Source: Anaerolineales bacterium
GTDB lineage: Bacteria; Chloroflexota; Anaerolineae; Anaerolineales; UBA4823
Direction: 5' to 3'
Assembly (NCBI GenBank): GCA_046485135.1
Contig: JAWOHN010000044.1
Location: 14,231 to 78,230, forward strand
DNA: 64,000 bases
The notes beneath the pieces are model-generated. The model ran no database searches. It had not been told where the DNA came from and saw nothing but the letters and a program-made list of their open reading frames with translations. The position numbers and the translations under genes are program-made. Below, one piece after another: positions 13,895 to 58,618 of the stretch; position 1 is the first letter of the stretch, and every line of letters starts with the position of its first letter.

Positions 13895-15238
13895 CTACGG
13901 GCAGATATCCGCAGGGGTTATGTCTGGGTTTCCGTAACCAAAGGTCTGCGACCCAAGGGGCTCGAGAATATCAGGGTGTGATGTTGCATACTCGATTGCC
14001 GCGGCGCAGCCTGACTCGGCCCCTGCCTCGAGATAACCATCCCGGTAGACGGCAGCCATCTCGTAATAGCCGTGCTGAGGACTGTCCAGCGGATAGATTT
14101 TTTCCATTTCCCCCAAAATAATCTCGGCAAAGGCGTCTCGCTCCTGCATTGTATAGATGACCACCAGGTGGTAGCGCGAAAACGCACCGATCCATGCTTG
14201 TTCCAACGCTGGGTCCAACCAGTCATCCAGGGTGGTATCGCTGATAGCGCGATTGTAGAGTGACAATGCCTTCTGGAAGTCGCTATCTTTAGCAGCCGCC
14301 CTAGCATCGTGCAAGACATGAACGCGATAATTAGAAGGCTCAGGCTGGGAAGAAACCATCTGCCAATTTTGGCTACCCTCGGCATACGACCATATTTTGG
14401 TCATGTTTCGCTGAGGACCAGCTCCCACAGAGCCAAACCCACTCCCAGTTATATGAAGATCAAAAATTCCCTCATTTGCAGAAGGAGCCAGGTAGATGGT
14501 TGGATACGGCAAGTCATTGGTCTCGCCCTCCAACCGGTTAGTAAATTGAGCTCCTTCCCACCCAATCACCTGAACCCGTTCAAAGCAAGTATGCGCTCCA
14601 CAGGAGGCTGAGCTGATCACCAGCTCAGATAATCCATCAGCATTCAAATCTTGTAAAAACCGGATTCCAGGTGCTCCATCCAGTGGACGGCTGTCCTGCA
14701 AATATGCCTGCCGGTATTCTCCCTGACTGCATGTGTAGATTATCAGCATCCCAGCTGGAGGCATACTCACCGATCCTGGATCGTAGATGGAAACAACCAG
14801 CTCATCAGCCCCATCGCCGGTCATATCGGCTGCACCAACCGGGACAGGCAGGTTGGCAATCTCTGCAGCGTAGAGGGCTCCATCTAAGTCTTCTACCCAA
14901 CCCCCTTCATTCAAGAATTGCTGAATCGCCTGAGGGTAAGTATCGAACGGACCATCTGGCAGTGGGCCTGGAGTTCCTTTGGGCCGACAAGTTGCCGTAT
15001 CATCAAAGATTGTTTCTGATTGCGTTGGAGATAGAAGCGTATGGGTGGGAGTTGCCAGCGGAGGAGAGCTGGGTGAAACAGAGTGAGTCGGCAGATCGAT
15101 TGGGGAGGCAGTTCCCATCTGTGGATCAGCGGCAGGGGAACAACCTGCCAACAAATAGGCTGACACCAGGAGAGTTATGTAAAAGTGAAAGGTTGGTTTA
15201 AGGAGAAAAAGAATTGACCTCGACAAAGAAATCTCCAT
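13895..15238 (-). CDS. Secreted lipoprotein with FG-GAP/VCBS-like Ca-binding repeats and a helical C-terminal domain
   Basis: Signal peptide with lipobox LLAGC; DMTGDGADELVVS and DLNADGLSELVIS loops; no enzymatic motif recognised. Confidence 0.55.
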   Translation of the reverse strand: MEISLSRSILFLLKPTFHFYITLLVSAYLLAGCSPAADPQMGTASPIDLPTHSVSPSSPPLATPTHTLLSPTQSETIFDDTATCRPKGTPGPLPDGPFDTYPQAIQQFLNEGGWVEDLDGALYAAEIANLPVPVGAADMTGDGADELVVSIYDPGSVSMPPAGMLIIYTCSQGEYRQAYLQDSRPLDGAPGIRFLQDLNADGLSELVISSASCGAHTCFERVQVIGWEGAQFTNRLEGETNDLPYPTIYLAPSANEGIFDLHITGSGFGSVGAGPQRNMTKIWSYAEGSQNWQMVSSQPEPSNYRVHVLHDARAAAKDSDFQKALSLYNRAISDTTLDDWLDPALEQAWIGAFSRYHLVVIYTMQERDAFAEIILGEMEKIYPLDSPQHGYYEMAAVYRDGYLEAGAESGCAAAIEYATSHPDILEPLGSQTFGYGNPDITPADICP

Positions 15239-15326
15239 GATTGATTTTTTATATTAAAGGATTATACTACTTATACGTGAGTACTCCATTGATCCGTGAT
15301 AACCGGGTAAATTGGGTGAAAATTCC

Positions 15327-17660
15327 ATGGTCCGCCCCATCCCCTTTATTCCAGGAACCCCCCCTGCCAACCCTGGCCCATTGGCTCGCTATCTTCCACC
15401 GCTTGCGAATGGCATAGTCACCACCTGGCTGAGAGAAAACCTACCCAGCGGGGCCTGGGTGCTGGACCCATTCGGCGCGGCTCCTCACCTGGCTTTGGAG
15501 GCTGCCAGGGCTGGTTACCGGGTTATCGTATCGGCCAACAACCCGGTGTCACGAAAATTAGTGGAGATGGGGGCGAGCGCACCTGCCCTGAGCGAATATC
15601 AGGGAGCCCTGGCTGACCTGGCCTCAGCCTACAAAGGGCAAGAAAGGATCGAACCGCTCATCCGCGCATTATACACAACAGATTGCTCGAGCTGCGGACA
15701 GCCGGTAATGGCTGATTATTTCCTATGGGAACGCTCAGCGGCTTACCCATATGCCCGCTACTACACCTGTCAGCGTTGCGGAGATAACGGAGAACGCCCT
15801 ACCACTCAAAAGGATAAAGAACAGGCTACCAACTTTGCGCAAAATGACCTGAACCGGGCACGCGCATTGGAAAGAGTTGCACCGGCAAATGATCCAGACC
15901 GAACGCATGCCGAGGAAGCCCTGTCTGTTTATCTTCCTCGGGCAGTTTATGCCTTGTTTACATTGATCAACAAGTTGGATTCGTTGGACATCAGCCCGGC
16001 CCGGCGGAATTATTTGAGCGCGCTGTTACTGTCTGCCTGTGACCAGGCCAATACCTTATGGTCTCATCCCACTTCCAGGGAAAGGCCTCGCCAACTGACT
16101 ATACCGCATCACTTCCGAGAGAATAACGTCTGGCTGGCTTTAGAGCAATCCACCCGGCAATGGGTGTCTGACCAGCCAAAAATACCCTTAAGTTATTGGC
16201 CAGCACTTCCTGCAGAACCAGGTGGGATAACCCTTTTTGAAGGCAGGTTGAAGGATTTAGCCGCTGACTTATCCAACCTAAAAATAGGAGCTGTGATTGC
16301 TGCTCTGCCCCGCCCAAACCAGGCTTTCTGGACCTTGTCTGCCTTATGGGCAGCATGGTTGTGGGGTAGAGCAGCGGTTGGACCTTTCAAATCTGTCCTG
16401 CGCAGACGGCGTTACGATTGGGGCTGGCATACGGCTGCACTGTCGTCCGCTTTCGGCAGCCTGGCTCCCTTATTGGAGGCCGGCACCCCAATCTTGGGGC
16501 TGATCGGAGAAGCAGAACCGGGCTTCTTGTCTGCTTCCTTTTTAGCTGGCGCCAGCTCTGGTTTTGACCTGGATGGATTTACCTTACGCTCTGGGAGCGG
16601 ACAAGCCCAAATTCACTGGCGGCGTAGGGTGGGAGAGGTCCTCCAGACAGACCCAAAAAGCAATGCGTCGACTATAGCCCGTCAGGCCGCCCTGGAGGCT
16701 CTTAAGGATCGCGGACAACCAGCGGAATATTTGACATTACATGCTGCAGCGCTGACCAAGCTGGCAGAGCGAAATGCGTTTCCAAGAAAATCTGGCGCAG
16801 GAGCGGAAAGTCACTCCGCCCCGGAAGGTGAACCCTCCCCAGCCGAACTATATAGCCAACTCCAAAACATCTTGAAAGAAGTATTTAACTTCAGGGGTGG
16901 TTTCCGGCGATTTGACGGCAGCGAAGTTTCTTTGGAGGTAGGTAGTTGGTGGCTTAGAGACGAGGCAGATCTGCCGGTTTCCCTGGCCGATCGGATTGAG
17001 ATTGCTATCGCAAAATATCTACAAAGCAATATTGTATGTAAAATAGCTGAGCTGGATTCATATCTATGCGCATTGTTCCCGGGTTTGAATACCCCTAATC
17101 CGGAACTCATTCTGCATTGTTTATATTCCTATGGAGAAGAGGAGCCTGTGGGAGGTGGTCAATGGAGAATCCGGCCTCAAGATCAATTGGAAGCGCGCCG
17201 TGCTGAAATCGAAAAAACCGAAAAGATGCTCTTCAGCCTGGCAGAGCGGCTTGGTTTTTCGGTCCAGAAAAGCTCCGAAACTGGCGATCCGGAACCGCAC
17301 AGCGAAGCCAGGATAACCAATATATGGCGAGACCCTCAAAATTTCTCGCGCTATGCATTTTCTATCATCTCCTCTGCGGTTATTGGTGAAATTGTTAGAC
17401 AAAAAGGTTCATTGACGCCAAAACCCCAGCAAAGATTCCGTCATGTTATTGTTCTGCCCGGCGGACGCGCCAATTTGGTAGCCTTCAAGTTGAGCAAAAA
17501 TGCTTGCTTGAATAAAGAGATCGAACAAGGCTGGATTTTTCTCAAGTACCGTCACCTGCGCCGGTTGATCGAAAACCCATTGCTGACCGCTGAGAATTTA
17601 ATCGAACAGCTTGACCTCGATCCGCTCACCTACACAGCCACCCAGATGCGGCTTCTGTAA
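15327..17660 (+). CDS. Large hypothetical protein with a degenerate N4/N6 DNA-methyltransferase-like N-terminus and a Zn-ribbon insert
   Basis: VLDPFGAAPHLALEAARAGYRVIVSANNP resembles MTase motif I (DPFxGSGTT...GRxxIGxExN) but lacks the GSG. CSSCGQ...CQRCG ribbon. No clear (D/N)PP(Y/F). The track start 15312 is TTG. Confidence 0.4.
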   Translation: MVRPIPFIPGTPPANPGPLARYLPPLANGIVTTWLRENLPSGAWVLDPFGAAPHLALEAARAGYRVIVSANNPVSRKLVEMGASAPALSEYQGALADLASAYKGQERIEPLIRALYTTDCSSCGQPVMADYFLWERSAAYPYARYYTCQRCGDNGERPTTQKDKEQATNFAQNDLNRARALERVAPANDPDRTHAEEALSVYLPRAVYALFTLINKLDSLDISPARRNYLSALLLSACDQANTLWSHPTSRERPRQLTIPHHFRENNVWLALEQSTRQWVSDQPKIPLSYWPALPAEPGGITLFEGRLKDLAADLSNLKIGAVIAALPRPNQAFWTLSALWAAWLWGRAAVGPFKSVLRRRRYDWGWHTAALSSAFGSLAPLLEAGTPILGLIGEAEPGFLSASFLAGASSGFDLDGFTLRSGSGQAQIHWRRRVGEVLQTDPKSNASTIARQAALEALKDRGQPAEYLTLHAAALTKLAERNAFPRKSGAGAESHSAPEGEPSPAELYSQLQNILKEVFNFRGGFRRFDGSEVSLEVGSWWLRDEADLPVSLADRIEIAIAKYLQSNIVCKIAELDSYLCALFPGLNTPNPELILHCLYSYGEEEPVGGGQWRIRPQDQLEARRAEIEKTEKMLFSLAERLGFSVQKSSETGDPEPHSEARITNIWRDPQNFSRYAFSIISSAVIGEIVRQKGSLTPKPQQRFRHVIVLPGGRANLVAFKLSKNACLNKEIEQGWIFLKYRHLRRLIENPLLTAENLIEQLDLDPLTYTATQMRLL

Positions 17661-32032: not shown

Positions 32033-32869
32033 ATGATGAGCAATTCAGAAAACATCATCGATGTATCTGAATCTGATTTTGAATATCAAGTCTTGATCTA
32101 CTCACAGACTGTACCGGTATTGGTTGATTTTTGGGCTGAATGGTGTGGGCCATGTCGAGTGTTGGGGCCAATTCTCGAGCGATTAGCCAAAGAGGCTGCG
32201 GGAAGTTTTCGCCTGGCCAAGATCAATGTAGATGAGAATCCCAATCTAGCCCGGCGCTACAACGTCAGCAGTATCCCGATGGTGAAAGCCTTCCGAGATG
32301 GTCATGTGGTATCCGAATTCGTTGGCGCATTGCCTGAAGCTCGCATTCGGGAATTCCTACGCGCCCTGGCTCCCAGTCCAATGGATCTGCTGTTAGAAAA
32401 AGGAAACAGCTTGCTTGAGATGAAGGAGTGGGCTCAAGCAGAAAAAATATTTGGCGAGTATTTGCACACATTTCCATCCCATTCTGGAGCGACATTGGGG
32501 CTCATCAAGAGCCTTCTTCAACAAGGTCGCGCGGGGGAAGCCCTTAACTTGATCAAGAAATTCCCAGAGGGAAAAGACTATAACCGGGTTGAGAACTTAA
32601 AGCCATTGGCTACGGCCCTGGCCCGTCTGCAAGCAGGCGATGCCTACTCCGAGAACCCACTTGAGGCAGCGTATATGAACGCCTTACGACTGGTAACGCG
32701 CGGGAACCACGCTGCTGCCATGGATGGTCTGTTGGATGTGCTTCGCCAGGACAAGGGATATCGCCAGGGCGAAGCCCGCCAGGTGATGGTGGGAATCTTT
32801 GAGCTATTGGGAGATGATAACCCGCTTATCCGCCAGTACCGCAACGAACTGGCAATGGTCCTGTTTTAG
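32033..32869 (+). CDS. Thioredoxin fused to a TPR-like C-terminal domain (YbbN/CnoX-like, with intact CGPC)
   Basis: VLVDFWAEWCGPCR active site; helical-repeat C-terminal half. ATG 32033 has a GGAG SD; ATG 32000 is the alternative. Confidence 0.8.
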   Translation: MMSNSENIIDVSESDFEYQVLIYSQTVPVLVDFWAEWCGPCRVLGPILERLAKEAAGSFRLAKINVDENPNLARRYNVSSIPMVKAFRDGHVVSEFVGALPEARIREFLRALAPSPMDLLLEKGNSLLEMKEWAQAEKIFGEYLHTFPSHSGATLGLIKSLLQQGRAGEALNLIKKFPEGKDYNRVENLKPLATALARLQAGDAYSENPLEAAYMNALRLVTRGNHAAAMDGLLDVLRQDKGYRQGEARQVMVGIFELLGDDNPLIRQYRNELAMVLF

Positions 32870-34722
32870 CGCCAGGTGCGCATTTCGCGGATATTTTCCC
32901 ACAGTATATACATTCCCCCTGCCAAGGCTGCGCCAACAACCATTGGCCAGAAAAATTCATATAAAAGAACTAATGAACACACGATCGCCAGGCCAACACT
33001 GATACTGGCGATCAACCTGGTTAACTGCCGGCGAAAACCCGACTCGATAAAGATGAGCACCCCAATCATGGCTACCAGCCCGAACAACAGGTAATGTGGA
33101 GCAAATACAACCAGCACAATAATGCTGGTAAGCAGCAAGGTGGTACTGATGGCGGCAAAGGCTTCCGCCAGGCGGCCCAAACGGAGATCAATATCCGTAG
33201 AAGGTTGGTGGGAACGGTGAATGTGTGAACGCAGATTACCCAAATCGCCCAGCTTCAAACGATCTTCATGCCAATCTAAAGCATCCAGCTTGGCATCCTC
33301 GATGGTGATCTCCTTTCGCAGGCGCTTAAGCTCCCCTGATATTTCCCGAATTCGTTCGTGATGGCGATCATAGATAACTGCCATATGTGGGTAACCTTCC
33401 ATGGCAGTTGCTTCAAGTCCCAAACCACCCAGCTCAGCGCTTATTGAGGCGATCTCTTCCTGCAGGTTGGCTCGGAACTCACGAATACTCGACCGTTGTC
33501 GCTCCAGATAAGCCAGGGCTTCATCGGGGGGAGGCACCTTGGTCAGCCCAGCCCATCCTAATGGGTCATACCAGGCCTGGCGGACGGTTCCATCTCGATT
33601 GTACATCGGCCCAGCGGGAGCATTCTCTCCAGCTACCGGGTCGCGCGCATACAGTCCCCACAACCCGCGATAATCCCTGACCCACACTGGAGCATCTGTT
33701 ATTGAGTCCATGTCCCATTCTCTAACCTCTCCGGGACCGATTGAGACTCCATCACCACGGGCATAATCAACGAAAGGAACACGGAATAAATGCCAATCTT
33801 TTGAGGCGACCGTCTTGTCTCCCTGGCGGAGCGTGTTTACCCACACTTTCCGAACCCGATTGAGAAGGCGGGCTAAAGGAGTGAGCAGAGGCAACTCTGT
33901 TTCAGCGAGATACTCACCCGCCTGGAAGTAACTGGCATGGCTACCTGCTCCAGCATAAACCACCAAATGATCTCCAACTTTCTCGGCCTCCGGATCAGTC
34001 CAATGCCGGCGCAGGTCATCGCCAGAATAATCGTGAACAGCATAAGCTACCCAATGCGGCTGGACCTGCTGGTTTTCATCCTCTGTACAGTAGATCGAGA
34101 TCATTTCCCAATCGGCTTCATGATCATTTACCCCAAAAAAACCGGAGCGCCAATTGTTAAAGGGATAGAGGAACCAATATTGTAATATCAACCAACCATT
34201 TTCACGGATAGCCCTCCCATAGTAGGTGTATTTCGGGTTCTCTGCCTGAATCCGGCGGTAGGTCAACGCAGCGGCAGCAGCAGTGTCTCCTGTAACGCGC
34301 CCGCGTAAAAGCAATGTCAAGGAGAAAAGCGCATCCAGGAACCGCGAAAGTATCCCGACCCTGGCTAAACGCCCCCTTCCAGCACGGAACTCAACCTCTG
34401 GCTCTGCATGGGTAAGACTTTTAACCGCTTCGTTCAAAGAAAAGCGAGCCAGCTCGATTATATCCAACGGCTCAATGAACTTCAGGAAGTATACTGCTCC
34501 AAAGCCATCGTTGCGCGGAGTAACCAGTTTAGCGATGGTCATTTCACCTTGCGGCACCAGTAATTCTGCCGGTTCATTCGGTCGTTGGACCCACAAGCTA
34601 CATTGATTGATATACCGTTCAATATCGATCGGAAAAAAGCGCTCTCCCTTGGTAAAGCGAATGACCGGTTCAAACCGGCGCAGAAGTTCGATATCGCGAG
34701 ATTCAATCGCCCTGGCAATCAT
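32866..34722 (-). CDS. Vps62/DUF946-like domain protein with a coiled-coil and C-terminal TM helices
   Basis: FEPVIRFTKGERFFP and LQYWFLYPFNNW...GVNDHEADWEMISIY resemble the Vps62 YWFFYPFN...GxHxGDWEH core. Heptad-like region at about aa 400-500; 3-4 hydrophobic helices at the C-terminus. Confidence 0.5.
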   Translation of the reverse strand: MIARAIESRDIELLRRFEPVIRFTKGERFFPIDIERYINQCSLWVQRPNEPAELLVPQGEMTIAKLVTPRNDGFGAVYFLKFIEPLDIIELARFSLNEAVKSLTHAEPEVEFRAGRGRLARVGILSRFLDALFSLTLLLRGRVTGDTAAAAALTYRRIQAENPKYTYYGRAIRENGWLILQYWFLYPFNNWRSGFFGVNDHEADWEMISIYCTEDENQQVQPHWVAYAVHDYSGDDLRRHWTDPEAEKVGDHLVVYAGAGSHASYFQAGEYLAETELPLLTPLARLLNRVRKVWVNTLRQGDKTVASKDWHLFRVPFVDYARGDGVSIGPGEVREWDMDSITDAPVWVRDYRGLWGLYARDPVAGENAPAGPMYNRDGTVRQAWYDPLGWAGLTKVPPPDEALAYLERQRSSIREFRANLQEEIASISAELGGLGLEATAMEGYPHMAVIYDRHHERIREISGELKRLRKEITIEDAKLDALDWHEDRLKLGDLGNLRSHIHRSHQPSTDIDLRLGRLAEAFAAISTTLLLTSIIVLVVFAPHYLLFGLVAMIGVLIFIESGFRRQLTRLIASISVGLAIVCSLVLLYEFFWPMVVGAALAGGMYILWENIREMRTWR

Positions 34723-47221: not shown

Positions 47222-47518
47222 GTGCAAAACTGCTCAGTATGCAACGCTCAATCTCCAGATTCAGCCAGACACTGCAGCAACTGTCAGGCTGATTTGCGAG
47301 AATTCTCCACTACCAGCGTGGCGCTAAAACGTATCCAAAACAACTCGCGAGTTGAAAGCGTAATCCTATCTGTTGCGGCAGATGCCTGCCCTGCCTGCCA
47401 AAAATATCAGGGGGGGTATGCGAAAGATGAAGCGCCGGTTTTACCCATTCAGGGCTGTTCCCATCCGAACGGCTGTCGCTGTTTTTACCAGCCTGTATTA
47501 TCGGATATCTATCCCTGA
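47222..47518 (+). CDS. Zinc-ribbon protein with a Cys/His-rich C-terminus
   Basis: CSVCN...CSNCQ ribbon; CPACQ...GCSHPNGCRC. GTG start 3 nt after the upstream stop. Confidence 0.5.
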   Translation: MQNCSVCNAQSPDSARHCSNCQADLREFSTTSVALKRIQNNSRVESVILSVAADACPACQKYQGGYAKDEAPVLPIQGCSHPNGCRCFYQPVLSDIYP

Positions 47519-49200
47519 TCCAAACGCCCCTCAATTTCATTCAGAAGGTTCTTCGCCAAGGATAAGGCCTGTTCCTTGGCGTCAATTTTTCCAACAGCCT
47601 GGTTTTCACGGATAGCTTCGAGAAGTTGCCCTACAACCGGTCCAGGCTGGAGATTTAAATATTCCATCAGCTCATTCCCGTCAAGAATTGCAGGGGGAGA
47701 AACGCTCTCTTGCGCTGCTTCCCACCACGCTTGGAGCAGTGTGCGGACCACCTGCAAATGCCGGGTCCAATGCTCTAAGGATAGGCTTGGACCGTAGGTA
47801 GCCAGAACATCTGCCAGGGATAATAAACAGATATCCACGCCAGCCGGGCCTGTAGCCTTGAAGAAGCGATAAATTGCCCGCCGGCTAACCGGGTCGGAAC
47901 CCTGGGATAACAAAATAGGCCTGAGATGGTGGCGTACGATGGTTCCCACCCGATCAATTTCAACATTACTTAAGCGCAAACTGCGCGCCCGCTCGATAAG
48001 GAGAGACTCTCCCACCTGATCATGTTGGAAAAAGCGGATGCGGTTAGCATCATCTACCGCCCAAGTTTGGGGTTTGCCAATATCATGGTACAGAGCTGCC
48101 AGGAACAGCAACCCTCGTAAAGAGCGATCTTTGGTCAGTTCAGACTGGAAATGCTGATCGATCTGCTGACGGAAGCGGCCCAGGTTCATCACCAACGATC
48201 CCATAATCAAGTTGGCGGCAGATTCTTCGTTGTATGATATTTGTAACGCTTGAAGCACGTTGTCTAACTGCTGCATTACTCCCAAAGTATGTTCCCACAC
48301 ATCATAAACATGTGGAGGCGATTGGTCTACACCCTTCAAAGCAGTTAATTCCGGCAAAATGTGGGGGAAAACGCCGAGTAAGTCCAAAGCCCGGAAACAA
48401 GTATGGGGCTGAGGGCCAGATAAAATCTTGAACAGCTCATCTCGCAACCTTTCCGGAGAAACTGCCGGCAATGCGCTTACCCCAGCGCGCAGCAGGGCTA
48501 GAGTTTGCGGAAGAATATGAAAATTATAGGCAGCTGCCAGACGAATTGCGCGCAGAATGCGCAGAGGATCATCTGTGATAGAGGTCGGGGAACAAGCACG
48601 CAAGCGCCTGGCGTGCAAATCTGCCGCGCCTCCCAGTGGGTCAAACAGGGCCATATTCTGGCGCAGGTCTAAAGCCATAGCGTTAACGGTGAAGTCACGC
48701 CCCCGCAAATCACTTTCCAGATCAGGTCCCCGGTAGGCCGCAAAATCCAGGGCACGGCCAGAGTCTGCGTGTCCGGGGAGGATCAGGCGGGCGGTTTCTC
48801 TTTCTTGATCGAGAGGGAAATAGGCTGCTCCAATTTGGTTGGCAACCATACGGGCATATTTCAATACATCCCCAGGGAGCACAAAATCCAAATCATGCAT
48901 GCTGCGTCCAAGCAGCGCATCTCGCACCGCGCCGCCCACCAGATGCAAAGGGATATGGTCAGGTATCGCTTCTGCAACCTGTTCGATTAGTGCAGATGAG
49001 GCAATTGGTTTTGAAATGGGTACATAAACGATGCGCGGCGTTTCTTTTGGCCGGGTCGCTTTTGCTGCCCGCAGAGCCTGGTCAGGTGTGCCGCCCTGTC
49101 CAATGACACGCTCACCCAGCAGAGCGACCCAGCGACCCGCATACTGAGCCAGGTGATCTACCTCACCGGATGGGTCCAACGATTCAGGCAATCCGTTCAT
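47509..49200 (-). CDS. cca: CCA-adding tRNA nucleotidyltransferase / poly(A) polymerase family enzyme with an HD domain and an ~70-aa N-terminal extension
   Basis: LHLVGGAVRDALLGRSMHDLDFV head motif; RDFTVNA; HD motif LYHDIGKP. Confidence 0.8.
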   Translation of the reverse strand: MNGLPESLDPSGEVDHLAQYAGRWVALLGERVIGQGGTPDQALRAAKATRPKETPRIVYVPISKPIASSALIEQVAEAIPDHIPLHLVGGAVRDALLGRSMHDLDFVLPGDVLKYARMVANQIGAAYFPLDQERETARLILPGHADSGRALDFAAYRGPDLESDLRGRDFTVNAMALDLRQNMALFDPLGGAADLHARRLRACSPTSITDDPLRILRAIRLAAAYNFHILPQTLALLRAGVSALPAVSPERLRDELFKILSGPQPHTCFRALDLLGVFPHILPELTALKGVDQSPPHVYDVWEHTLGVMQQLDNVLQALQISYNEESAANLIMGSLVMNLGRFRQQIDQHFQSELTKDRSLRGLLFLAALYHDIGKPQTWAVDDANRIRFFQHDQVGESLLIERARSLRLSNVEIDRVGTIVRHHLRPILLSQGSDPVSRRAIYRFFKATGPAGVDICLLSLADVLATYGPSLSLEHWTRHLQVVRTLLQAWWEAAQESVSPPAILDGNELMEYLNLQPGPVVGQLLEAIRENQAVGKIDAKEQALSLAKNLLNEIEGRLDQG

Positions 49201-50492: not shown

Positions 50493-50966
50493 TCAGGACA
50501 CTATCTGGTCCAGACTTTGGGGCAGTTCGTATCCCAGCTGGCGCAAGCGTTTTTTCAAATCGGCCAGGGATTTGCGACCAAAGCCATCAATCGCCAGGAG
50601 TTTTTCTTCACCCTGTGCTAAAAGATCCAGGATTTGACCGGTGTTTAACACTTCACTCTTGACCAGGGCGTCTGTTGCACGGGTTCCAAGCTCAAGTTCC
50701 TGGACAGGGCGTTCAGGAGATACCCGGGCAGCAGATCTCGCTTCGGCTTCGTCCTTATATTGCTGACGAGCTTGCAGCTTGCGATAGAAGCGATCGACCT
50801 GCCCTTCAGTATCTACGATGCGCTGCTCGCCGGTGTAAAATGGGTGACATTTGTAGCAAACATCGGTGCGGATTTCTTTTTTGGTAGAACCGGTATGCCA
50901 GGTGTTACCGCACGCACAGACCACCAAAGCATCCGAAAAATAAGTGGGATGGATTTTTTCTTTCAT
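50493..50966 (-). CDS. rpmE: Ribosomal protein L31 (Zn-type) fused to an RNA polymerase alpha-subunit C-terminal-domain-like HhH domain
   Basis: aa 1-70 are canonical L31 (KIHPTY...CACG...CYKCHPFYTGEQR). aa ~85-148 (PVQELELGTRATDALVKSEVLNTGQILDLL...LLAIDGFGRKSLADLKKRLRQLGYEL) align with the E. coli RpoA CTD ([27 protein letters not shown]...[26 protein letters not shown]). Confidence 0.85.
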   Translation of the reverse strand: MKEKIHPTYFSDALVVCACGNTWHTGSTKKEIRTDVCYKCHPFYTGEQRIVDTEGQVDRFYRKLQARQQYKDEAEARSAARVSPERPVQELELGTRATDALVKSEVLNTGQILDLLAQGEEKLLAIDGFGRKSLADLKKRLRQLGYELPQSLDQIVS

Positions 50967-51914: not shown

Positions 51915-53144
51915 CTAACCGCAGCCGCCGCCGCCGGGGCCGCGCTTATTCTTCAGCTCGATAACGGGTACATATTCAAACTGGTATTCATCGGGTCTGG
52001 GGTAAGCCGCCGGATATTTCGAACCCAAAGCGGCAGGGAACACAAAACGCAGTTGATCTGCTGGTGCGCCGGTCACCGGAAGGATTTCATGTTCTTCGCC
52101 GGTAAATACTGCCAACCAGTTGTTGATCCCTCCCTCCAAGATATAAATATTCGGAACACTTTCGGCAACCAGGATCTTCCATGCTTCGGTGGCAGCGACC
52201 TCATCGTTGCTCATGGTGATGAAGACAGTATTATCCGGTTCGAGAAGCAGTTCTTTGCTCATCTCTGCTAGATCTGCCAGGTCTACCCGTCTGGCATTCG
52301 AGATATGGAACAAGTTGTAATCGGCTTCAGCCCGGACATCAAGCAGCACGATGCGCAGCTTGCGGTCCTGCATGTTTTCCAACACTTCCCCTGGAGAGAC
52401 CTGGACAGCGCGTGCATTCAATAACAATTCCTTCTCTGGGGCGATCTTGGCCCAACGATCGGCGATGGTGGGTTGCCCAAGAACAGCTACAAACCCGGCC
52501 AGGACGATGAGACCTGCCGCTGCGGCAAAGCGTTGCCGCGGAGCACTTTTTGGGTCCTTTCCACCGAAGATTTTTTCCAATTGCTCGCCCCCCCAAAACA
52601 TAAACAAGGCCATGAACACAACTGCAATGACCACCACGCCGGTATCTAAACCCAACCATTCCGGAATTGTGAAGCGACCGAAGTAGGACGAATTCCAAAA
52701 TATTCTGTAGGTGTCTACAGTCTCACCGAACAGGAGGATCCCAAACAACGCTCCGAGCGTGAAAAACAGGCCATCCAACTTGCGCGTTGCCAGTGCGACC
52801 AGCGAGGTGCCCGGACAAAACCCGCCAATGATAAAACCCACACCCATGATCAACCCGCCCAGAATGCCAGGCCACAAATAGGTGGGGGGAACCCAGACCA
52901 GGTTATAGTCCAACAGACCAATTGCAGAGGCGCCAAACACCAACACCATAGCGACCACAATGGCGGTGAACATCACCTTTAAGACCGTCATGTCTTTGAA
53001 ATAGAATTGGGCTGCCAGTTTTGGAGAGTTGGCAAAACCAGATATCTCCAGAACAAACCCAAAGAAAAAGCCGATCATCATATAAACCGAGAATTCCCCG
53101 AATTTTGTAAACAAATCTGCAATGGGAAGAGGAAAAGGCGCCAT
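51915..53144 (-). CDS. YeeE/YedE-family sulfur-compound transporter half fused to a rhodanese-homology domain that lacks the catalytic Cys; C-terminal GGGGCG tail
   Basis: The N-terminal ~200 aa are hydrophobic and carry the GGFCPGTS loop. The C-terminal region LRIVLLDVRAEADYNLFHISNA...VFITMSNDEVAATEAWKIL...LEGGINNW is a rhodanese fold with M/S in place of the active-site Cys. The protein ends ...KRGPGGGGCG. Confidence 0.7.
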   Translation of the reverse strand: MAPFPLPIADLFTKFGEFSVYMMIGFFFGFVLEISGFANSPKLAAQFYFKDMTVLKVMFTAIVVAMVLVFGASAIGLLDYNLVWVPPTYLWPGILGGLIMGVGFIIGGFCPGTSLVALATRKLDGLFFTLGALFGILLFGETVDTYRIFWNSSYFGRFTIPEWLGLDTGVVVIAVVFMALFMFWGGEQLEKIFGGKDPKSAPRQRFAAAAGLIVLAGFVAVLGQPTIADRWAKIAPEKELLLNARAVQVSPGEVLENMQDRKLRIVLLDVRAEADYNLFHISNARRVDLADLAEMSKELLLEPDNTVFITMSNDEVAATEAWKILVAESVPNIYILEGGINNWLAVFTGEEHEILPVTGAPADQLRFVFPAALGSKYPAAYPRPDEYQFEYVPVIELKNKRGPGGGGCG

Positions 53145-53161
53145 GATCTATGTCTCCTGTA

Positions 53162-53740
53162 TTAATTCCACAAACGGCGTACAAAGTAAGCCAGGGCGTA
53201 CCCCCCAGCAAAGACTGCAAACATAAACGCCCAACTGCCCACCGAGAGCACGGCGCCTCCCGAAAGAGCCTGACCGGATGTGCAGCCTCTGGCCAGACGC
53301 GCTCCATAGCCCATGAAGCCGCCTCCAACAAAAGCCATCAACCAGCGCTTCCGAACGGTGATTTGCGGACCTTTGCCGGTCTCGACCTTTAGCCGGCCGT
53401 TAAGCCACCCGGAGGCAAACCCTCCCAGCAAGGTACCAACCGTTACCGGCACAACCCAGTTGTCTAAGGGGTTCGTATCGCCTCCTGCCATTGCCAACAG
53501 GAAAGGGGTACGATCGACATGCCCGGGTGCAACCAAATCTTCAAAATAAACCACGATCCGGTTCAGACCGCCCGAAGCGCCTAAGCCATTGCCAGTGAAA
53601 AAGAAGGCCAGGAACAGAACCACGCCTAAAAGGGCGCCCCCCAGGTATGGATTTACGTAGGGTCGGGCATCCCCCCGATCCAATACCCGCTTAAGAGAAA
53701 AAACACGTTTGCCAGAATTGGCTGAAGCAACAGTGCTCAT
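53162..53740 (-). CDS. YeeE/YedE-family sulfur-compound transporter half
   Basis: 192 aa and hydrophobic; conserved loop RLARGCTSGQALSG. The start overlaps the upstream stop (ATGA). Confidence 0.75.
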   Translation of the reverse strand: MSTVASANSGKRVFSLKRVLDRGDARPYVNPYLGGALLGVVLFLAFFFTGNGLGASGGLNRIVVYFEDLVAPGHVDRTPFLLAMAGGDTNPLDNWVVPVTVGTLLGGFASGWLNGRLKVETGKGPQITVRKRWLMAFVGGGFMGYGARLARGCTSGQALSGGAVLSVGSWAFMFAVFAGGYALAYFVRRLWN

Positions 53741-56517
53741 GATACAGCTTCCTCCTCAGTTAATTCAAATACTTCGACTTCATCCCAGCCAAGCATCATC
53801 GCCTGGATGCTGGCTAAAGGTGAATGACCTGTTGTAGTTAGATATACGTGCATGACCACAAAGGCTGCAAACAGCCAGGCAACCAAGGTATGGAATGGCG
53901 CCAGGAAAGGCAAGCCGCCCAACCAGTTGGTGATATTTGGCCAGCGCTGGGCTCCCCACATCAAAGCGCCGGTGATAATCTGCAGGGGCAACAAGATATT
54001 CAATATGGCAAAATAGGTCACTTGCTGCAATGGGTTAAGCTTCTTATCAGGAGTCTTCTCAAAGGGGTGTTTATCGCCTTTGAAAATTCCGCGCAGGTAA
54101 AAGCGCGCCTGGACAATGGCTTGATCGAAAAAGCCCAATGGACGGGGTAGGAACTGCTGGATCTCACCACTGACCAGGTGATAAAACAGGGACAGACCCG
54201 CGTTTATAACCAGCAGGGCAGCCAGGATATTGTGCACCAGGACCACGTAGCGGAAGCTAAACAGCCCAAAGGTATCTGGTTTATGGATAACAAGACCGGT
54301 AAAGATCAAACCCAGGATGACAAAGGTCTGCAACCAATGCCAAAAGCGCTCGTACACCGCATACATATAAACTTTCTTCAACTTAGGGGTATGACTTGGG
54401 CGGCGCATAGAGGTAAAGAAACGCAGCCCACCATGCAGAACAACGCCAAACATGGTCCCAAGAAATACCAACCCGCCAGCCAGGTCTACCCAAGCGACAC
54501 TGTCATGACCGAGTACGTAAAGGTTAGACTCCCGAGTCAGCGGCTGGTAGTAGAGTGCACCTGCCTCGGTTTGATACATCCTGCCATTGTTCAGGGTATT
54601 GGATGAGGCCACAAATTCGGGCAGCACATCGCCAGGTGTATAGGAAGATAACAAAATTGGCTGAGTCACCCGGGAGTTGGTCCCATGACAGGCCTGGCAA
54701 TCCCTGATAGCCCAATCACCACCGGCTACAGTGTGATTGATGCTATATGGTTGGACCTCACCGACAATACGGGGGTTCTCCAGGCCCAATTGGCTTAAGC
54801 GGGCCGTGATCAGATCTAACTTGGCCTGGTTGTCCAATACCAGCTCGCTTTCAGCTAAGCTTCCGTCTCCATTCTGGTCAAAGGCAGCCATAATTTCAGC
54901 CGGATAGCGGTCTCCTTCGAGCCAGGCAGAGGCCAGATCAACCTGGCGGACCGGTCGTTCAGGGTTTCCATAGACCCAAAACCAGGAGGTGATCAAGTTA
55001 AAGGGAGCGATCTTGCTGTTCCCATCGACATCGGTTTGGGGCATTAAGATGGGCTGGTAGCCTGTGACCAGAGAAGTCATTGGGTTTACGCCGCCTGGCT
55101 CCAATCCCCGGCATTCCGTATTCGGGGAGACGTCCGCGGTGACTACAGTCCAATCATATTGCTGAAAAGCCGCAGAATACATTTGCGGGATATGGCATGT
55201 CTCGCAGCTCACCACTTCCATGTGGCGATCTTGATAGGGCAACCAGGTATGGGTGCTCAGGGCGTCATGACAAGATTCGCAGCGCCGCATGGTGTTCTTC
55301 AAATCCGGGCTGACCGTGCTCTGAGCACTCTGGCCGCGGGCGAACTGGTGCAAAGGTTGGTATAAATATTCACCTAACTCTAACCGGCGCGGGTCAAAGA
55401 TCAGATGTTCGGGACGCGAGCTTTCCGCCTCTTGGAAGTAAACCGGGTTGTTCAGTGAGAAATGGCAATCGGTACAGTTCACGGCACGCTCGGCATGAAT
55501 ATCCCAGGAGCGGGTTAACTTGGCTTTGTCCGCCAGGTTCAAACCAGAATCCGACAGCCGCTGAGGCGAGATGATCTGCCCTGTGGTTTGCGTGCGCCAT
55601 TGCTCTGCGCTACAAGCGGATAAAATAACCGGCTCACGCAGAGTATCGTGGACCAGGCCGTGGCACTGCCCGCAATTATCGTTGGTGGGGTCCTGGATCT
55701 GCACGAACTCAGCGTCCAGCAAGCCATCGTCAGTAAACGCGTCGGCCCGGTATTGGTATGCGCCATTCACCCGGTCAACGATCCCACTTTGCAGCAAAGT
55801 GGCAGTATTCGCCCAACGGAAATTGCCCGCCTGAAGCTCATCGATGCGGGCCTGGTTATCGGGGGCAGACGTGTGGCAAAGGAAGCAATTCATCTCCACC
55901 GTTCCCGATCGTTCCCAATCCCAGGCTGTCAGCTGACCAGTGTGCGGGTCCTGCACATTCGTTTCAGGGTCACCCGAAGTCACCGGCAAATCCGATAGCG
56001 GGCGACCATCGCGAGCCGTGGCGGCTGGGCCGCCGCCGACATGGAATGATCCCAGCTGCCTGATCCAATCTGCAGTGCCCAGATCGATGCGCTCGTCTCC
56101 TTGGGGGGAAAGGTAACGGTAGATCAAGGGGTTCCATTTCCCAAATAACCCGGGGCTGCTGTCCCAAGATCGCCCACCGGTAACATCACCTGGTGCACTG
56201 AAATCTTCCAGACCTAAATCTGCATGATAGCTATGCTGCTCGATAAAAGCGGTATCATGGCATGCGCCACAGGTTTGTAGAGTGGATACCGCTTTCCCGC
56301 TGGTAAGCACATTTTCACCACTTTCATCCAGCAAGGCAAAGGTGGGATGAATGGGTGAGATCTGAGCGGGCCCGCTATCCAGCGATTTCGCAAATGCCAG
56401 GCTACCCGTTATGATAAAAATCGCTATCAGAGCTATGCTGAAGGCGAAAACCGTGTAGGCGCCCCGGGGACGAGATGATAAGAAGCAGGTCAACTTTGTC
56501 ATCATTCTTATGCTCAT
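53737..56517 (-). CDS. Heptaheme c-type cytochrome fused to a HydC/FdnI-type b-type cytochrome membrane domain (CbcL-like quinol oxidoreductase)
   Basis: N-terminal TM/signal anchor. Seven CxxCH motifs (CGACH, CFLCH, CGQCH, CTDCH, CESCH, CETCH, CQACH). C-terminal ~230 aa with 4-5 TM helices and a His pattern (YERFWHWLQTF..., VLVHNIL, FHTLVAW, VMHVY) typical of Ni/Fe-hydrogenase/FDH cytochrome b subunits. DQNGDGSLAESE is a Ca-loop-like motif. Confidence 0.75.
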   Translation of the reverse strand: MSIRMMTKLTCFLSSRPRGAYTVFAFSIALIAIFIITGSLAFAKSLDSGPAQISPIHPTFALLDESGENVLTSGKAVSTLQTCGACHDTAFIEQHSYHADLGLEDFSAPGDVTGGRSWDSSPGLFGKWNPLIYRYLSPQGDERIDLGTADWIRQLGSFHVGGGPAATARDGRPLSDLPVTSGDPETNVQDPHTGQLTAWDWERSGTVEMNCFLCHTSAPDNQARIDELQAGNFRWANTATLLQSGIVDRVNGAYQYRADAFTDDGLLDAEFVQIQDPTNDNCGQCHGLVHDTLREPVILSACSAEQWRTQTTGQIISPQRLSDSGLNLADKAKLTRSWDIHAERAVNCTDCHFSLNNPVYFQEAESSRPEHLIFDPRRLELGEYLYQPLHQFARGQSAQSTVSPDLKNTMRRCESCHDALSTHTWLPYQDRHMEVVSCETCHIPQMYSAAFQQYDWTVVTADVSPNTECRGLEPGGVNPMTSLVTGYQPILMPQTDVDGNSKIAPFNLITSWFWVYGNPERPVRQVDLASAWLEGDRYPAEIMAAFDQNGDGSLAESELVLDNQAKLDLITARLSQLGLENPRIVGEVQPYSINHTVAGGDWAIRDCQACHGTNSRVTQPILLSSYTPGDVLPEFVASSNTLNNGRMYQTEAGALYYQPLTRESNLYVLGHDSVAWVDLAGGLVFLGTMFGVVLHGGLRFFTSMRRPSHTPKLKKVYMYAVYERFWHWLQTFVILGLIFTGLVIHKPDTFGLFSFRYVVLVHNILAALLVINAGLSLFYHLVSGEIQQFLPRPLGFFDQAIVQARFYLRGIFKGDKHPFEKTPDKKLNPLQQVTYFAILNILLPLQIITGALMWGAQRWPNITNWLGGLPFLAPFHTLVAWLFAAFVVMHVYLTTTGHSPLASIQAMMLGWDEVEVFELTEEEAVS

Positions 56518-56522
56518 TACGT

Positions 56523-57977
56523 TTACCTGGGTGTATTGCTAAATCGACCGCCCCATTGCATTGGGTCTCCGGGATAGCCCAATGCCACCCAATCCAGGCG
56601 ACCTTCTGAGCTGTGGCAGGATTTGCATTGCAATGCGTTATCCGCCGGGGCAATCATATGGGATAGAGACCAATACATCTCTGTTTCAGCAAAACCATAT
56701 TCGCCGCTGTAAGCCATGTTGGTGGCCTCGGCTCCCGCGCGCAGAGCGATATCCCAATCAAATGTATCCCAAAAACCGCCCTCCCCGGCTGTCATGGGCT
56801 GCAACAAGTAGTTATAGACTGCATCGTACGGTTGCTTTCCACGATGTACCTTGAAAGGCCAGATTTTTGCTTCTGGGTCTGAAATATCACCATCTAACGT
56901 GTTGATCTGTGTTACCTGAGTGGGGTCGATGATATCCCCAAAGAGATAGCGATCTTTAGCGCCTTTGTACCAGTAATATTCCGGTGTAAAACCCGATTCA
57001 TACACAAAACTTCCCTTGACCTTTAGGTAAGCGTGGGGATCTTCTGGCAAGTCTTGCCCGGCTGTGGACCAGTCCCAATACATCTTGGTGGGTTCAATGA
57101 CTGCCCCAGTTGGGACATGACAGGTCTGGCATGCAACGGCATTGGCGTGCGCATTAATACGCGCATCACTGTGCAAGTTCTCTGAATGGCAGTCTGAACA
57201 GGCAACCTGGTTTTCGCGATCCAGGGAGACGGAGATGGCCCGGCCGCGGATATCATGATCCTGCGCCTGGTGACAATCGATGCATTGGAAATCATGACCG
57301 CCCATATGGATATCCAGGCTGGCAGAGGGGAAATACAGGGTCTGGTCCATGTCACCGTGCTTGACCGCGTTTCCACCGCCACCATTGAAATGGCAAGAAC
57401 CGCAATTTTCCCGGGTAGGTGAACCAACACTTTGGGCAGAGGCCAGCAGGTCCACGCCCTCAACCGGAAGGCCACCGCGTCCCTTGACATATCCGCCAGA
57501 GAGATCGTGGCACACCAGGCAGTCAACATTTTCCTGCACAGAAAAGTCAAAGTCCGCATCGAACCATCCATAACCGGCATGGCAGGAGGTGCAAGAAGGC
57601 CAGTTCGACTGGATGCCCAGACAAAAATTGTTCAGCGAGTTCTTCTTGCCGATGGTGACCGGTTCATCTCTTCCTTCCAACTGGTAAGGCTTGCTTTCCC
57701 AGGTCCAATGCACCGTCTGCATGAGATCCTGCGCAGCGTCAGGATGGCACTCCAGGCAGGCCCGGGTTACATCAGAGCCTGTTTCAAACGGTCCTGCAAG
57801 CAAATCCGTATGATTTGTATGGGGAGATTTTTTGGGGACAACCGCCCAAGGGTCATCGGCTGCCCGAGTATCTTTCGGAATTAACAAGATCACCGGCACA
57901 GCAATACTCAGCAGGGTAAAGACCAGTCCAAAGATCCAGATATACTTTGCACTTCTGATTTTGTCGGCAATGCGCAT
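56523..57977 (-). CDS. Octaheme c-type cytochrome, tetrathionate reductase (Otr)-family-like, N-terminally membrane-anchored
   Basis: Eight CxxCH motifs (CLECH, CTSCH, CLVCH, CGSCH, CIDCH, CSDCH, CQTCH, CKSCH). 484 aa with one N-terminal TM helix. Blocks HWTWE, SCHAGYGW and VDCLVCHD match my recollection of the Otr family. No CxxCK and no CX15CH. Confidence 0.65.
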   Translation of the reverse strand: MRIADKIRSAKYIWIFGLVFTLLSIAVPVILLIPKDTRAADDPWAVVPKKSPHTNHTDLLAGPFETGSDVTRACLECHPDAAQDLMQTVHWTWESKPYQLEGRDEPVTIGKKNSLNNFCLGIQSNWPSCTSCHAGYGWFDADFDFSVQENVDCLVCHDLSGGYVKGRGGLPVEGVDLLASAQSVGSPTRENCGSCHFNGGGGNAVKHGDMDQTLYFPSASLDIHMGGHDFQCIDCHQAQDHDIRGRAISVSLDRENQVACSDCHSENLHSDARINAHANAVACQTCHVPTGAVIEPTKMYWDWSTAGQDLPEDPHAYLKVKGSFVYESGFTPEYYWYKGAKDRYLFGDIIDPTQVTQINTLDGDISDPEAKIWPFKVHRGKQPYDAVYNYLLQPMTAGEGGFWDTFDWDIALRAGAEATNMAYSGEYGFAETEMYWSLSHMIAPADNALQCKSCHSSEGRLDWVALGYPGDPMQWGGRFSNTPR

Positions 57978-57988
57978 TGCCTCTCCTC

Positions 57989-58351
57989 TTATTCTTCCGA
58001 GAGCTCTAGCAGGTTGGCGCGATAGTTGATCCGATCGCGCAAGACAGTTAACAAGGTATCCAGCGCCTCGATCAAGCGGTGGTCGGTCAGGGTGTATTCG
58101 ACGCTGGCACCTTGTCGCTCAGCGCGCACCAGACCGCGCTCTTTCAAAATTTTCAAATGGCGAGACGCGGCCGGCTGGCTGATGCCGACATTGGAGGCCA
58201 GATCGCCGACATTCAGGCTTTGCTCCGAAAGCGCATAAAGAATAAGCAAGCGCTTTGAATCTGCCAGAGCAGAACATAACTCAGCATGCAATTCGGATAT
58301 TTGATGGGCCAAATTGATATTATCCATATTTTCTTTTATCCATGTATTCAC
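57989..58351 (-). CDS. ArsR/SmtB-family transcriptional regulator
   Basis: ALADSKRLLILYAL...NVGDLASNVGISQPAASRHLKILKERGLV is a winged HTH. Single Cys (AELCSAL). GTG start at 58351; ATG alternative at 58327. Confidence 0.85.
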   Translation of the reverse strand: MNTWIKENMDNINLAHQISELHAELCSALADSKRLLILYALSEQSLNVGDLASNVGISQPAASRHLKILKERGLVRAERQGASVEYTLTDHRLIEALDTLLTVLRDRINYRANLLELSEE

Positions 58352-58618
58352 TTATACGTATATATCTCAATGCACAAGTATACTAATATGGTGTTAACCT
58401 TGCTAGTGAAATACGTCACACGCGCGTATTACATTAATCATAAATAAATCACCTTCTCAAGATATTCAACAACCAGATGGAGCATCAAGAGGGAATATGC
58501 CAATCGGCAGTCTCAGGGATGACAGTTAGCACTACCCAAAATGAACAAACCGCAACATAATGAAACAAGGATATTTCCATCCATTTTTTACCTAACTTCT
58601 CGAATAAGGAGGCAAAAT

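Follow-up and report, generated by a model that had tools for sequence, protein, structure and literature searches.

The window analysed here, 64,000 nt of contig JAWOHN010000044.1 (positions 14,231 to 78,230) from an Anaerolineales bacterium, carries at 51915-58351 five closely packed minus-strand genes. They encode an ArsR-type regulator, an octaheme c-type cytochrome of the Otr family, a heptaheme cytochrome c fused to a membrane cytochrome b, and two half-size YeeE/YedE-type channel proteins, the second of which continues into a rhodanese domain and a short cysteine-tipped arm (Table 1). We propose that this operon specifies one membrane-bound, quinone-linked extracytoplasmic sulfur redox machine, in which Otr would act on sulfur held by the arm while the PmpAB-type channel would move sulfur across the membrane, a reading that we regard as an evenly balanced proposition.

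The gaps between the five open reading frames (ORFs) are, in order, 11, 5, -4 and 17 nt. This tight spacing, together with a gene order kept between genomes and conserved promoter elements found solely upstream of arsR, supports a single operon. The original prediction had described the same five packed ORFs and gaps, a single operon ending just upstream of the rplU promoter, and 15 CxxCH motifs over the two cytochromes plus a membrane cytochrome b; each of these points was recovered by the ORF check, the motif count (8 + 7) and the PF01292 match, and a perfect consensus sigma-70 promoter does lie beyond the operon, ~146 nt upstream of rplU-rpmA. All four families proposed for profile searches (TIGR04315, PF01292, PF04143 and PF00581) were matched as well. 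No Rfam leader was found in the 5' region of rplU-rpmA, and Rfam and tRNA scans of the whole window gave no matches. Simple promoter and terminator scans within the operon returned counts at or below chance and are uninformative on its structure.

Table 1. Genes and regulatory features of the five-gene locus (window coordinates)
Feature	Position	Strand	Description
arsR, longest ORF	58351-57989	minus	120 aa, GTG start
arsR, likely ORF	57989..58327	minus	112 aa from ATG 58327; single invariant Cys
otr	56523..57977	minus	484 aa; membrane-anchored octaheme c-type cytochrome
Heptaheme cytochrome c, transmembrane helix and PF01292 cytochrome b fusion	53737..56517	minus	926 aa
PmpA-like half channel	53162..53740	minus	192 aa; PF04143 C-half, invariant Cys153
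PmpB-like half channel with rhodanese and Cys arm	51915..53144	minus	409 aa; PF04143 N-half, PF00581
Putative ArsR operator	58345..58362	minus	inverted repeat TATACG-N6-TGAATA, 17-35 nt upstream of ATG 58327
CRP/FNR-family-like site	58405..58420	minus	TGTGACGTATTTCACT; TGTGA-N6-TCACA with 1 mismatch, upstream of arsR
Consensus sigma-70 promoter	51828-51800	minus	TTGACA-17-TATAAT, perfect; between operon and rplU

The octaheme protein matches the Otr model TIGR04315 at 563.9 bits (cut-off 375) and, in a search of PDB sequences, Shewanella OTR (1SP3) at E 4e-150 with 53% identity. Its CxxCH motifs at residues 74, 129, 153, 192, 232, 260, 283 and 451 are kept in 97-100% of 75 aligned sequences, and both K111, which corresponds to the heme-2 ligand Lys56 of 1SP3, and C119, which corresponds to Cys64, are invariant in 74/74 orthologues. 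A second heme motif, its Lys ligand and an adjacent Cys have been listed as the catalytic hallmarks of Otr (bioRxiv 10.1101/2023.04.20.537704), and all three are kept here. Judged by these residues, the protein is a true Otr orthologue with an intact catalytic site, as the Otr-like label first given to it had suggested, and it is the predicted catalytic subunit of the module. It shares with the OTR of Shewanella oneidensis (SO_4144) ~53% identity across the catalytic domain, the eight CxxCH motifs, the heme-2 Lys ligand and the neighbouring active-site Cys. Unlike that protein, which was described as soluble (PMC12949373), it begins with a lysine- and arginine-rich segment followed by a transmembrane (TM) helix (residues 15-33) that would anchor it to the membrane. 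Moreover, it is co-encoded with a heptaheme/cytochrome b protein, a sulfur channel and a Cys-arm carrier, whereas CymA has been proposed as the ultimate electron source of the Shewanella enzyme (PMC12949373).

Two side observations concern Otr in related loci. In locus L087 (3573-5033), from a diderm-type genome, Otr carries a lipoprotein-like signal (…LVLGC), and this signal and the N-terminal TM anchor of the Anaerolineae proteins are, by their sequences, alternative ways to hold Otr at the membrane. In locus L091 (3894-3896), from a Deltaproteobacteria metagenome-assembled genome (MAG), otr is broken by a TAG at the invariant Trp of HWTW (TGG to TAG), which points to a pseudogene or else to an error in the sequence.

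The 926-aa protein consists of a heptaheme region (residues ~42-675), a TM helix and a cytochrome b domain (~714-916; PF01292, 80 bits, residues 719-908). All seven CxxCH motifs are conserved among orthologues, and His727, His762, His780, His876 and His890 of the cytochrome b are invariant. When the heptaheme domain was compared with Otr by hhalign (probability 96.9%), residues 266-618 aligned with Otr 176-462 and the hemes at 282, 348, 413, 438 and 607 aligned with Otr hemes 4-8; no counterpart of heme 2 or of its Lys was present. This alignment makes the domain a paralogue of Otr that lacks the catalytic heme; it probably serves as an electron wire, and the whole protein is the predicted link of the quinone pool to Otr. 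A comparable case is MmcA, a heptaheme, OTR-derived cytochrome of Methanosarcina which also lacks the catalytic heme and acts as an electron conduit (bioRxiv 10.1101/2023.04.20.537704). With its PF01292 domain the cytochrome b is, by profile, of the PhsC/HydC/FdnI type, at a score below the PhsC equivalog cut-off (NF011582, 127 bits, cut-off 204). The protein also scores below the cut-off of TIGR04314 (62 bits, cut-off 250), and a PDB sequence search with it returned no match.

In Geobacter, CbcL unites a multiheme cytochrome c and a HydC/FdnI-type cytochrome b in one polypeptide as an interface to the quinone pool. The 926-aa protein had been called CbcL-like, and this description stands for the fusion architecture only: CbcL has 9 hemes where the window protein has 7, the heptaheme part is more exactly an Otr paralogue, and, unlike in the CbcL/MmcA group, the c and b parts of the window-type module are separate genes in other phyla. 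Two non-heme cysteines of the heptaheme domain, C302 and C469, are kept in 83% of 82 aligned sequences and invariant in a 15-sequence alignment; they could form a disulfide or a functional thiol pair.

The two channel proteins divide the profile PF04143 (cut-off 27) between them, the 192-aa protein covering its C-half (75.9 bits, profile 176-309) and the 409-aa protein its N-half (52.5 bits, profile 12-164). Each has a conserved cysteine in the second loop of its half, Cys153 in ARGCTSGQ (77/77 orthologues) and Cys110 in GGFCPG (invariant among orthologues); going by profile region and the account of PMC11582611, they correspond to C293 (PmpA) and C91 (PmpB) of YeeE, respectively. Two half-size proteins with four TM helices and one conserved Cys each are what characterizes PmpA/PmpB, a layout that the window pair shares. 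The 192-aa protein is of the PmpA (C-half) type, in agreement with the published PmpA description (PMC11582611), and its charge profile (N-terminus +3.4, loop 114-131 +3.3, C-terminus +2) fits a predicted N-in/C-in orientation. The other half differs from PmpB in that it keeps an H7-like helix and gains a further TM helix and an exported rhodanese/arm domain.

The split YeeE/YedE pair with a rhodanese tail was thus confirmed by PF04143 and PF00581, and the ORF and Pfam check also agreed that the operon holds no TsuB/TusA gene; no TusA/YeeD gene was found in the flanks either. The assignment of the pair as the YeeE (TsuA) thiosulfate importer did not hold up. The TsuA models scored 32 bits against a cut-off of 400 and 18 bits against 645 (NF041049, NF052577), and by these scores the pair is of the short PmpA/PmpB type rather than TsuA. 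Previous studies showed that PmpAB relatives import zero-valent sulfur (PMC11582611), while YeeE (TsuA) imports thiosulfate and needs YeeD (PMC7449682, PMC11073785), a partner that the window module lacks. In a published model, the periplasmic carrier SoxYZ delivers sulfur to the YeeE-like importer SoxT, with ArsR-type sensing by SoxR (PMC11582611); the association of PmpA/PmpB/SoxT-type channels with an ArsR-type regulator and a periplasmic sulfur carrier, as found here, is therefore a published theme.

The 409-aa protein comprises the half channel (1-~145), an H7-like TM helix (166-186), a loop (187-206), a second TM helix (207-224), the rhodanese domain (PF00581, 51.7 bits, residues 251-345) and a tail. 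In an AlphaFold model, which was computed without the channel partner and not used for topology, the rhodanese part is confident, with a predicted local distance difference test (pLDDT) score of 80-89 over ~230-345, and Foldseek matches it to rhodaneses. The catalytic cysteine of rhodaneses is absent: the loop reads MSNDE, there is no Cys in the domain, and this is kept across 68 orthologues. The best PDB match, Alr3790, has a likewise Cys-less aligned loop. The protein ends in ...GPGGGGCG, and 68/68 complete orthologues end in K-R-(G/A)-P-x-(S/G)-G-G-C-G, a few of them in GGCGG, so that the Cys-less rhodanese with a terminal Cys arm noticed at the outset is a firm feature of the family. A search of 1.84 billion cluster representatives with the rhodanese and tail gave 253 matches at E <= 1e-10. 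Many of these homologues are stand-alone proteins of ~205-215 aa, built of a lysine- and arginine-rich N-terminus, one hydrophobic helix, a conserved GQPT, a Cys-less rhodanese and GGCG; the ending GGC[GS]G? occurs in 48/54 stand-alone-size and 31/33 fused-size representatives. Signal-anchored Cys-less rhodaneses with a SoxY-like terminal arm thus make up a large family, which is apparently undescribed.

On which side of the membrane the arm lies is central to its role. YeeE is N-out/C-in, its N-half (H1-H6) running out-to-out and its C-half in-to-in, with H7 flipping the chain (PMC7449682). In the charge profile, loop 187-206 has a mean K+R of 5.1 and the rhodanese domain a net charge of -9. 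Because of the YeeE homology topology, the positive-inside rule and the extra TM helix, the rhodanese and Cys arm are predicted, with good support, to lie outside the membrane, in the same compartment as the 15 c-type hemes; the signal anchors of the stand-alone homologues support this independently. Moreover, in loci L085 and L087-L091 a stand-alone rhodanese gene directly follows a 201-205-aa PmpB-like gene. Since the PmpB-like and signal-anchored rhodanese parts adjoin there as separate genes, the Anaerolineae protein would be a plain fusion, with helix 207-224 as the former signal anchor.

This topology bears on the model put forward originally, in which quinol-driven Otr reduces free tetrathionate outside the membrane, the YeeE pair imports the resulting thiosulfate and the Cys-armed rhodanese stands in for the cytoplasmic TsuB/YeeD. 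The name of the Otr family comes from tetrathionate reduction in vitro, otr was up 36-fold with tetrathionate in an Acidobacteriota microcosm (PMC8528874), YeeE (TsuA) does import thiosulfate with the help of YeeD (PMC7449682, PMC11073785), and the operon has no TusA/YeeD gene of its own. However, a cytoplasmic substitute is contradicted by the predicted outside location and the signal-anchored homologues, the halves are of PmpAB type and far below the TsuA cut-offs, and a free substrate leaves the invariance of the carrier arm unexplained. The chain from tetrathionate to thiosulfate to import was also left unsupported by Δotr Shewanella ANA-3, in which no role of OTR in tetrathionate respiration was seen (PMC12949373). 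We consider this model unlikely.

The arm itself recalls SoxY, the only well-known protein with a sulfur-binding, Gly-flanked Cys at its extreme C-terminus; the Cys of its GGCGG end is an established sulfur-binding site (PMC6067878). Like SoxY with its GGCGG, the window protein has a Gly-flanked Cys, within GGCG(G), at the very end of a part predicted to be exported, and in both cases sulfur delivery to a c-type cytochrome enzyme can be proposed, as from SoxYZ to SoxXA. Unlike SoxY, the window arm sits on a Cys-less rhodanese fold, has no SoxZ and is tethered to a membrane channel, and its proposed partner is Otr instead of SoxXA. A divergent soxY (S3) with soxZ adjoins otr in lucinid symbionts (PMC11237559), an independent observation which fits the carrier idea. 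Homology of the arm to SoxY was considered and dropped, the terminal motif alone being comparable: searches against Pfam, NCBIfam and PDB sequences gave no SoxY match, the PDB search with the rhodanese and tail returned rhodaneses only, and no soxZ is present. A second parallel is Wolinella succinogenes, in which Sud, a periplasmic rhodanese-fold polysulfide carrier, feeds the quinol-dependent sulfur reductase Psr. Here too an exported rhodanese-fold protein would present sulfur to a membrane-linked, menaquinol-dependent reductase; Sud, however, uses the rhodanese active-site Cys where the window domain would use the invariant Cys of its C-terminal arm, and Psr is a molybdoenzyme whereas the window reductase is a multiheme cytochrome.

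The five-gene unit is widely distributed. Database relatives of the 926-aa fusion number more than 2000, and in a scan of one genome per GTDB species 443 stretches encode relatives. The best 80 of these 443 were compared; they show 57-64% identity and come nearly all from the class Anaerolineae, with hosts including Anaerolineales, Ardenticatenaceae, Caldilineaceae, Promineifilaceae, Ca. Amarolinea aalborgensis and Ca. Desulfolinea nitratireducens. According to tblastn over these 80 loci, the order ArsR, Otr, fusion, half channel, half channel/rhodanese is found in essentially every locus whose contig is long enough, so the synteny proposed as a check of the five-gene set is borne out in ~80 Anaerolineae loci; with this and the Otr assignment, the original prediction survives its own comparative refutation test. 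The flanking genes vary among genomes while the gene set persists, and by this comparison it is the five-gene unit itself that is conserved. Chance or misassembly as the source of the gene set was ruled out, as L001 and L002 share both flanks and L003 has other flanks.

An unfused, six-gene version was found in 5/5 informative contexts of the stand-alone rhodanese (L087-L091), with the order Otr (8 CxxCH), a 674-732-aa cytochrome (6-7 CxxCH plus a C-terminal TM helix), a 211-218-aa PF01292 cytochrome b, a PmpA-like protein, a PmpB-like protein and a rhodanese with GGCG end. Its proteins are 33-65% identical to those of the window (blastp, three loci L087-L089), and the hosts named by the sources are Desulfobacterales and Deltaproteobacteria MAGs. 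The Anaerolineae version is thus, in gene content, the same set with two gene fusions and an arsR gene. That the set has been co-inherited across phyla, here with genes fused and there with genes split, argues strongly that the six functions work together.

Such linkage would be unexpected if Otr were a quinol-dependent nitrite or hydroxylamine reductase and the channel and carrier were loose passengers, all the more as the frames overlap or nearly abut; nor does any nitrogen-cycle gene recur beside the module. Although nitrite and hydroxylamine are the best OTR substrates in vitro (PMC12949373), we therefore hold this explanation to be very unlikely. The minority neighbours of the module point to sulfur instead: a second ArsR paralogue, an SQR-like flavoprotein with DUF1641, DsrC, DsrE2, a secreted four-rhodanese protein and Psr-like NrfD/Fer4 subunits. 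As a side observation, L003 2431-5844, directly upstream of the module, carries an ArsR paralogue with the same Cys context (HADICSALAD), a 653-aa SQR-like flavoprotein with DUF1641, and DsrC-like and DsrE2-like proteins, and similar sets recur in ~6-7/80 loci. As well, a secreted ~565-aa protein with a signal peptide and four rhodanese domains is encoded near the module in L029 (2515-4212, minus strand) and 4 other loci.

Parts of this picture have precedents. Otr beside cytochrome b was noted in Thermosulfurimonas (PMC4911364) and Ignavibacteria (PMC7509429), and otr in Anaerolineae bins has already been mentioned in genome papers. Among the papers searched, none linking Otr with a YeeE-type channel or a Cys-armed rhodanese was found, and the module is not described in the cable-bacteria and sulfur-disproportionation genome papers. 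The component families are therefore known, while for the whole assembly no description was found; the original claim of novelty keeps its point for the link of Otr, channel and carrier, and gives way in that the module is widespread and pairs of Otr and cytochrome b had been noted.

The first gene encodes a member of the ArsR/SmtB family (PF01022, 63 bits; NF033788, 82.7 bits, cut-off 55), in keeping with the ArsR-type regulator first named for the operon. Its only cysteine, Cys26, is placed N-terminal to the helix-turn-helix (HTH) and invariant in 62/62 orthologues. The GTG at 58351 is probably the wrong start and the ATG at 58327 more likely, because orthologues share the Met at residue 9 and the GTG overlaps with the conserved operator; the JGI annotation in L001 also gives a 112-aa product. 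The operator consensus TATTCG-N6-CGAATA, with <=2 mismatches, occurs in 47/56 orthologous loci against 0.9% of shuffles, mostly 30-60 nt upstream of arsR, and TGTGA-N6-TCACA, with <=1 mismatch, is found upstream of arsR in 38/56 against 0.4%. A -10-like TATACT lies at 58382-58377, and the centre of the CRP-like site is 30 nt from its start, a spacing that would fit a class II (-41.5) CRP/FNR-dependent promoter; the putative operator palindrome would fall just downstream of this -10-like element. ArsR may thus be an autorepressor with a one-Cys thiol switch, acting together with a global activator site.

BigR, SqrR and SoxR/sHdrR are similar ArsR/SmtB winged-helix repressors encoded with YeeE-family genes, with a palindromic operator at their own promoter (putative in the window). 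The similarity to BigR and TsoR at the level of NCBIfam models is weak, with scores below the equivalog cut-offs (47.6 bits against 155 for BigR, 61.8 against 115 for TsoR), and the two-Cys sensing pair of the BigR/SqrR/TsoR subtypes, also typical of SoxR/sHdrR, is replaced in the window ArsR by one Cys before the HTH. TsoR, the second-best NCBIfam match, was followed as a lead to the identity of this ArsR and dropped; the name was not found in the literature searched.

ArsR-type (BigR/PigS) operons with PmpAB-like proteins have been linked to sulfide and sulfite detoxification. This favours a model in which the channel exports sulfite or sulfane sulfur and Otr reduces it outside with quinol electrons, in an MccA-like manner, with ArsR controlling what would be a route of detoxification or an electron sink. 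OTR has indeed been suggested to be a sulfite reductase, and its eight haems superimpose on those of MccA/SirA (PMC12949373). The missing two-Cys pair speaks against such a function, neither the operon nor its neighbourhood has a gene for a persulfide dioxygenase, and the role of a carrier arm would be less obvious, which makes this model, in our view, quite unlikely.

According to our preferred reading, a carrier-dependent quinone-linked machine, all catalytic parts are predicted to face the outside of the cytoplasmic membrane. Otr would receive electrons from menaquinol by way of the cytochrome b and the seven hemes. The Cys at the tip of the arm, behaving like the SoxY GGCGG arm or the Sud carrier of Wolinella, would bind sulfur as a persulfide, polysulfide or S-thiosulfonate, and tetrathionate or polysulfide might form such adducts spontaneously. 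The arm would then offer its bound sulfur to the Lys-ligated heme of Otr, and the sulfur product would cross the membrane through the adjacent PmpAB-type channel. Once in the cytoplasm, sulfur may modify the single Cys of ArsR and so derepress the operon, with the CRP/FNR-type activator site as a second regulatory input.

The direction is most likely reductive, from quinol to an oxidised or zero-valent sulfur compound, because OTR hemes are reported to be low-potential, in a range similar to the -100 to -450 mV of MmcA (bioRxiv 10.1101/2023.04.20.537704), and because menaquinone cannot be reduced by a couple as positive as tetrathionate/thiosulfate. The reverse has also to be weighed, namely that Otr loads sulfide or thiosulfate onto the Cys arm (cf. 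SoxXA on SoxY, or SQR), electrons pass through the heptaheme domain and cytochrome b to menaquinone, and sulfane sulfur is imported for cytoplasmic processing. A SoxY-like arm would suit this, as would the position of otr beside soxY/soxZ in sulfur-oxidising symbionts (PMC11237559), the origin of the SoxYZ-to-SoxT import model in a sulfur oxidiser (PMC11582611), the DsrE2, DsrC and SQR-like neighbours in some loci and the weak thiosulfate oxidase activity reported for OTR (PMC12949373). At +198 mV (PMC8528874), however, thiosulfate/tetrathionate cannot reduce menaquinone, which leaves only sulfide-level donors, and all robust OTR activities are reductions. Moreover, no cytoplasmic sulfur-oxidation pathway is encoded within the window, and most hosts belong to Anaerolineae and Desulfobacterota of an anaerobic, heterotrophic type. 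Sulfur oxidation by the module thus appears doubtful.

Several points weigh against the reductive, carrier-dependent reading. In vitro, OTR works best on nitrite and hydroxylamine and shows weak activity on sulfur compounds (PMC12949373). The arm resembles SoxY solely in its last 4-5 residues, with no SoxY fold or sequence similarity. The topology is a prediction, and the membrane part of the AlphaFold model is poor (pLDDT <50 for much of residues 78-158). Sequence does not tell which way the electrons flow, as cytochromes b of the PF01292 family take part in quinol oxidation as well as in quinone reduction. As well, arsR is absent from the unfused loci L087-L090, and L091 has a different, multi-Cys ArsR upstream, so that the regulatory part belongs to the Anaerolineae version only and ArsR is ruled out as an obligatory part of the module.

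Some further features of the window lie outside the operon. At 50493-50966 (minus strand), ribosomal protein L31 (residues 1-64) is fused to an RNA polymerase alpha C-terminal domain (PF03118, 36 bits, residues 83-142), a fusion also annotated in L001 and L002. At 1968-3671 (plus strand), flanked by genes for a hybrid histidine kinase (116-1894) and an EamA transporter, one ORF joins a pyridoxal phosphate (PLP)-dependent enzyme domain (PF00291) to a response-regulator receiver domain. The ORFs at 13895-15238 (minus), 15312-17660 (plus) and 32866-34722 (minus), of 447, 782 and 618 aa, gave no Pfam match at E <= 1e-5. Finally, 47509-49200 (minus) encodes an enzyme of the CCA-adding/poly(A) polymerase family with N-terminal DUF5678 and an HD domain.

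Although OTR crystals were obtained in 2004, its native function was still called "cryptic" in 2023 (bioRxiv 10.1101/2023.04.20.537704), and according to a 2026 paper its physiological function has never been established (PMC12949373). Its linkage across phyla to a quinone interface, a heptaheme wire, a two-piece channel and a Cys-tipped carrier offers a testable hypothesis for its role and points firmly to sulfur, not nitrogen, chemistry. As a tentative generalization, Otr-family proteins may be carrier-dependent sulfur oxidoreductases, whose physiological substrate is carried by an exported Gly-Gly-Cys-Gly arm, as a Cys persulfide, polysulfide or thiosulfonate, with direct coupling to a PmpAB-type channel, the arm being placed on a Cys-less rhodanese here and on a divergent SoxY in some Gammaproteobacteria. 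If true, this would account for the role of Otr being still unsettled after twenty years of assays with soluble substrates and of Δotr phenotypes. The module also gives the Anaerolineae, abundant inhabitants of sediments, aquifers and wastewater plants, a likely use of sulfur-cycle intermediates.

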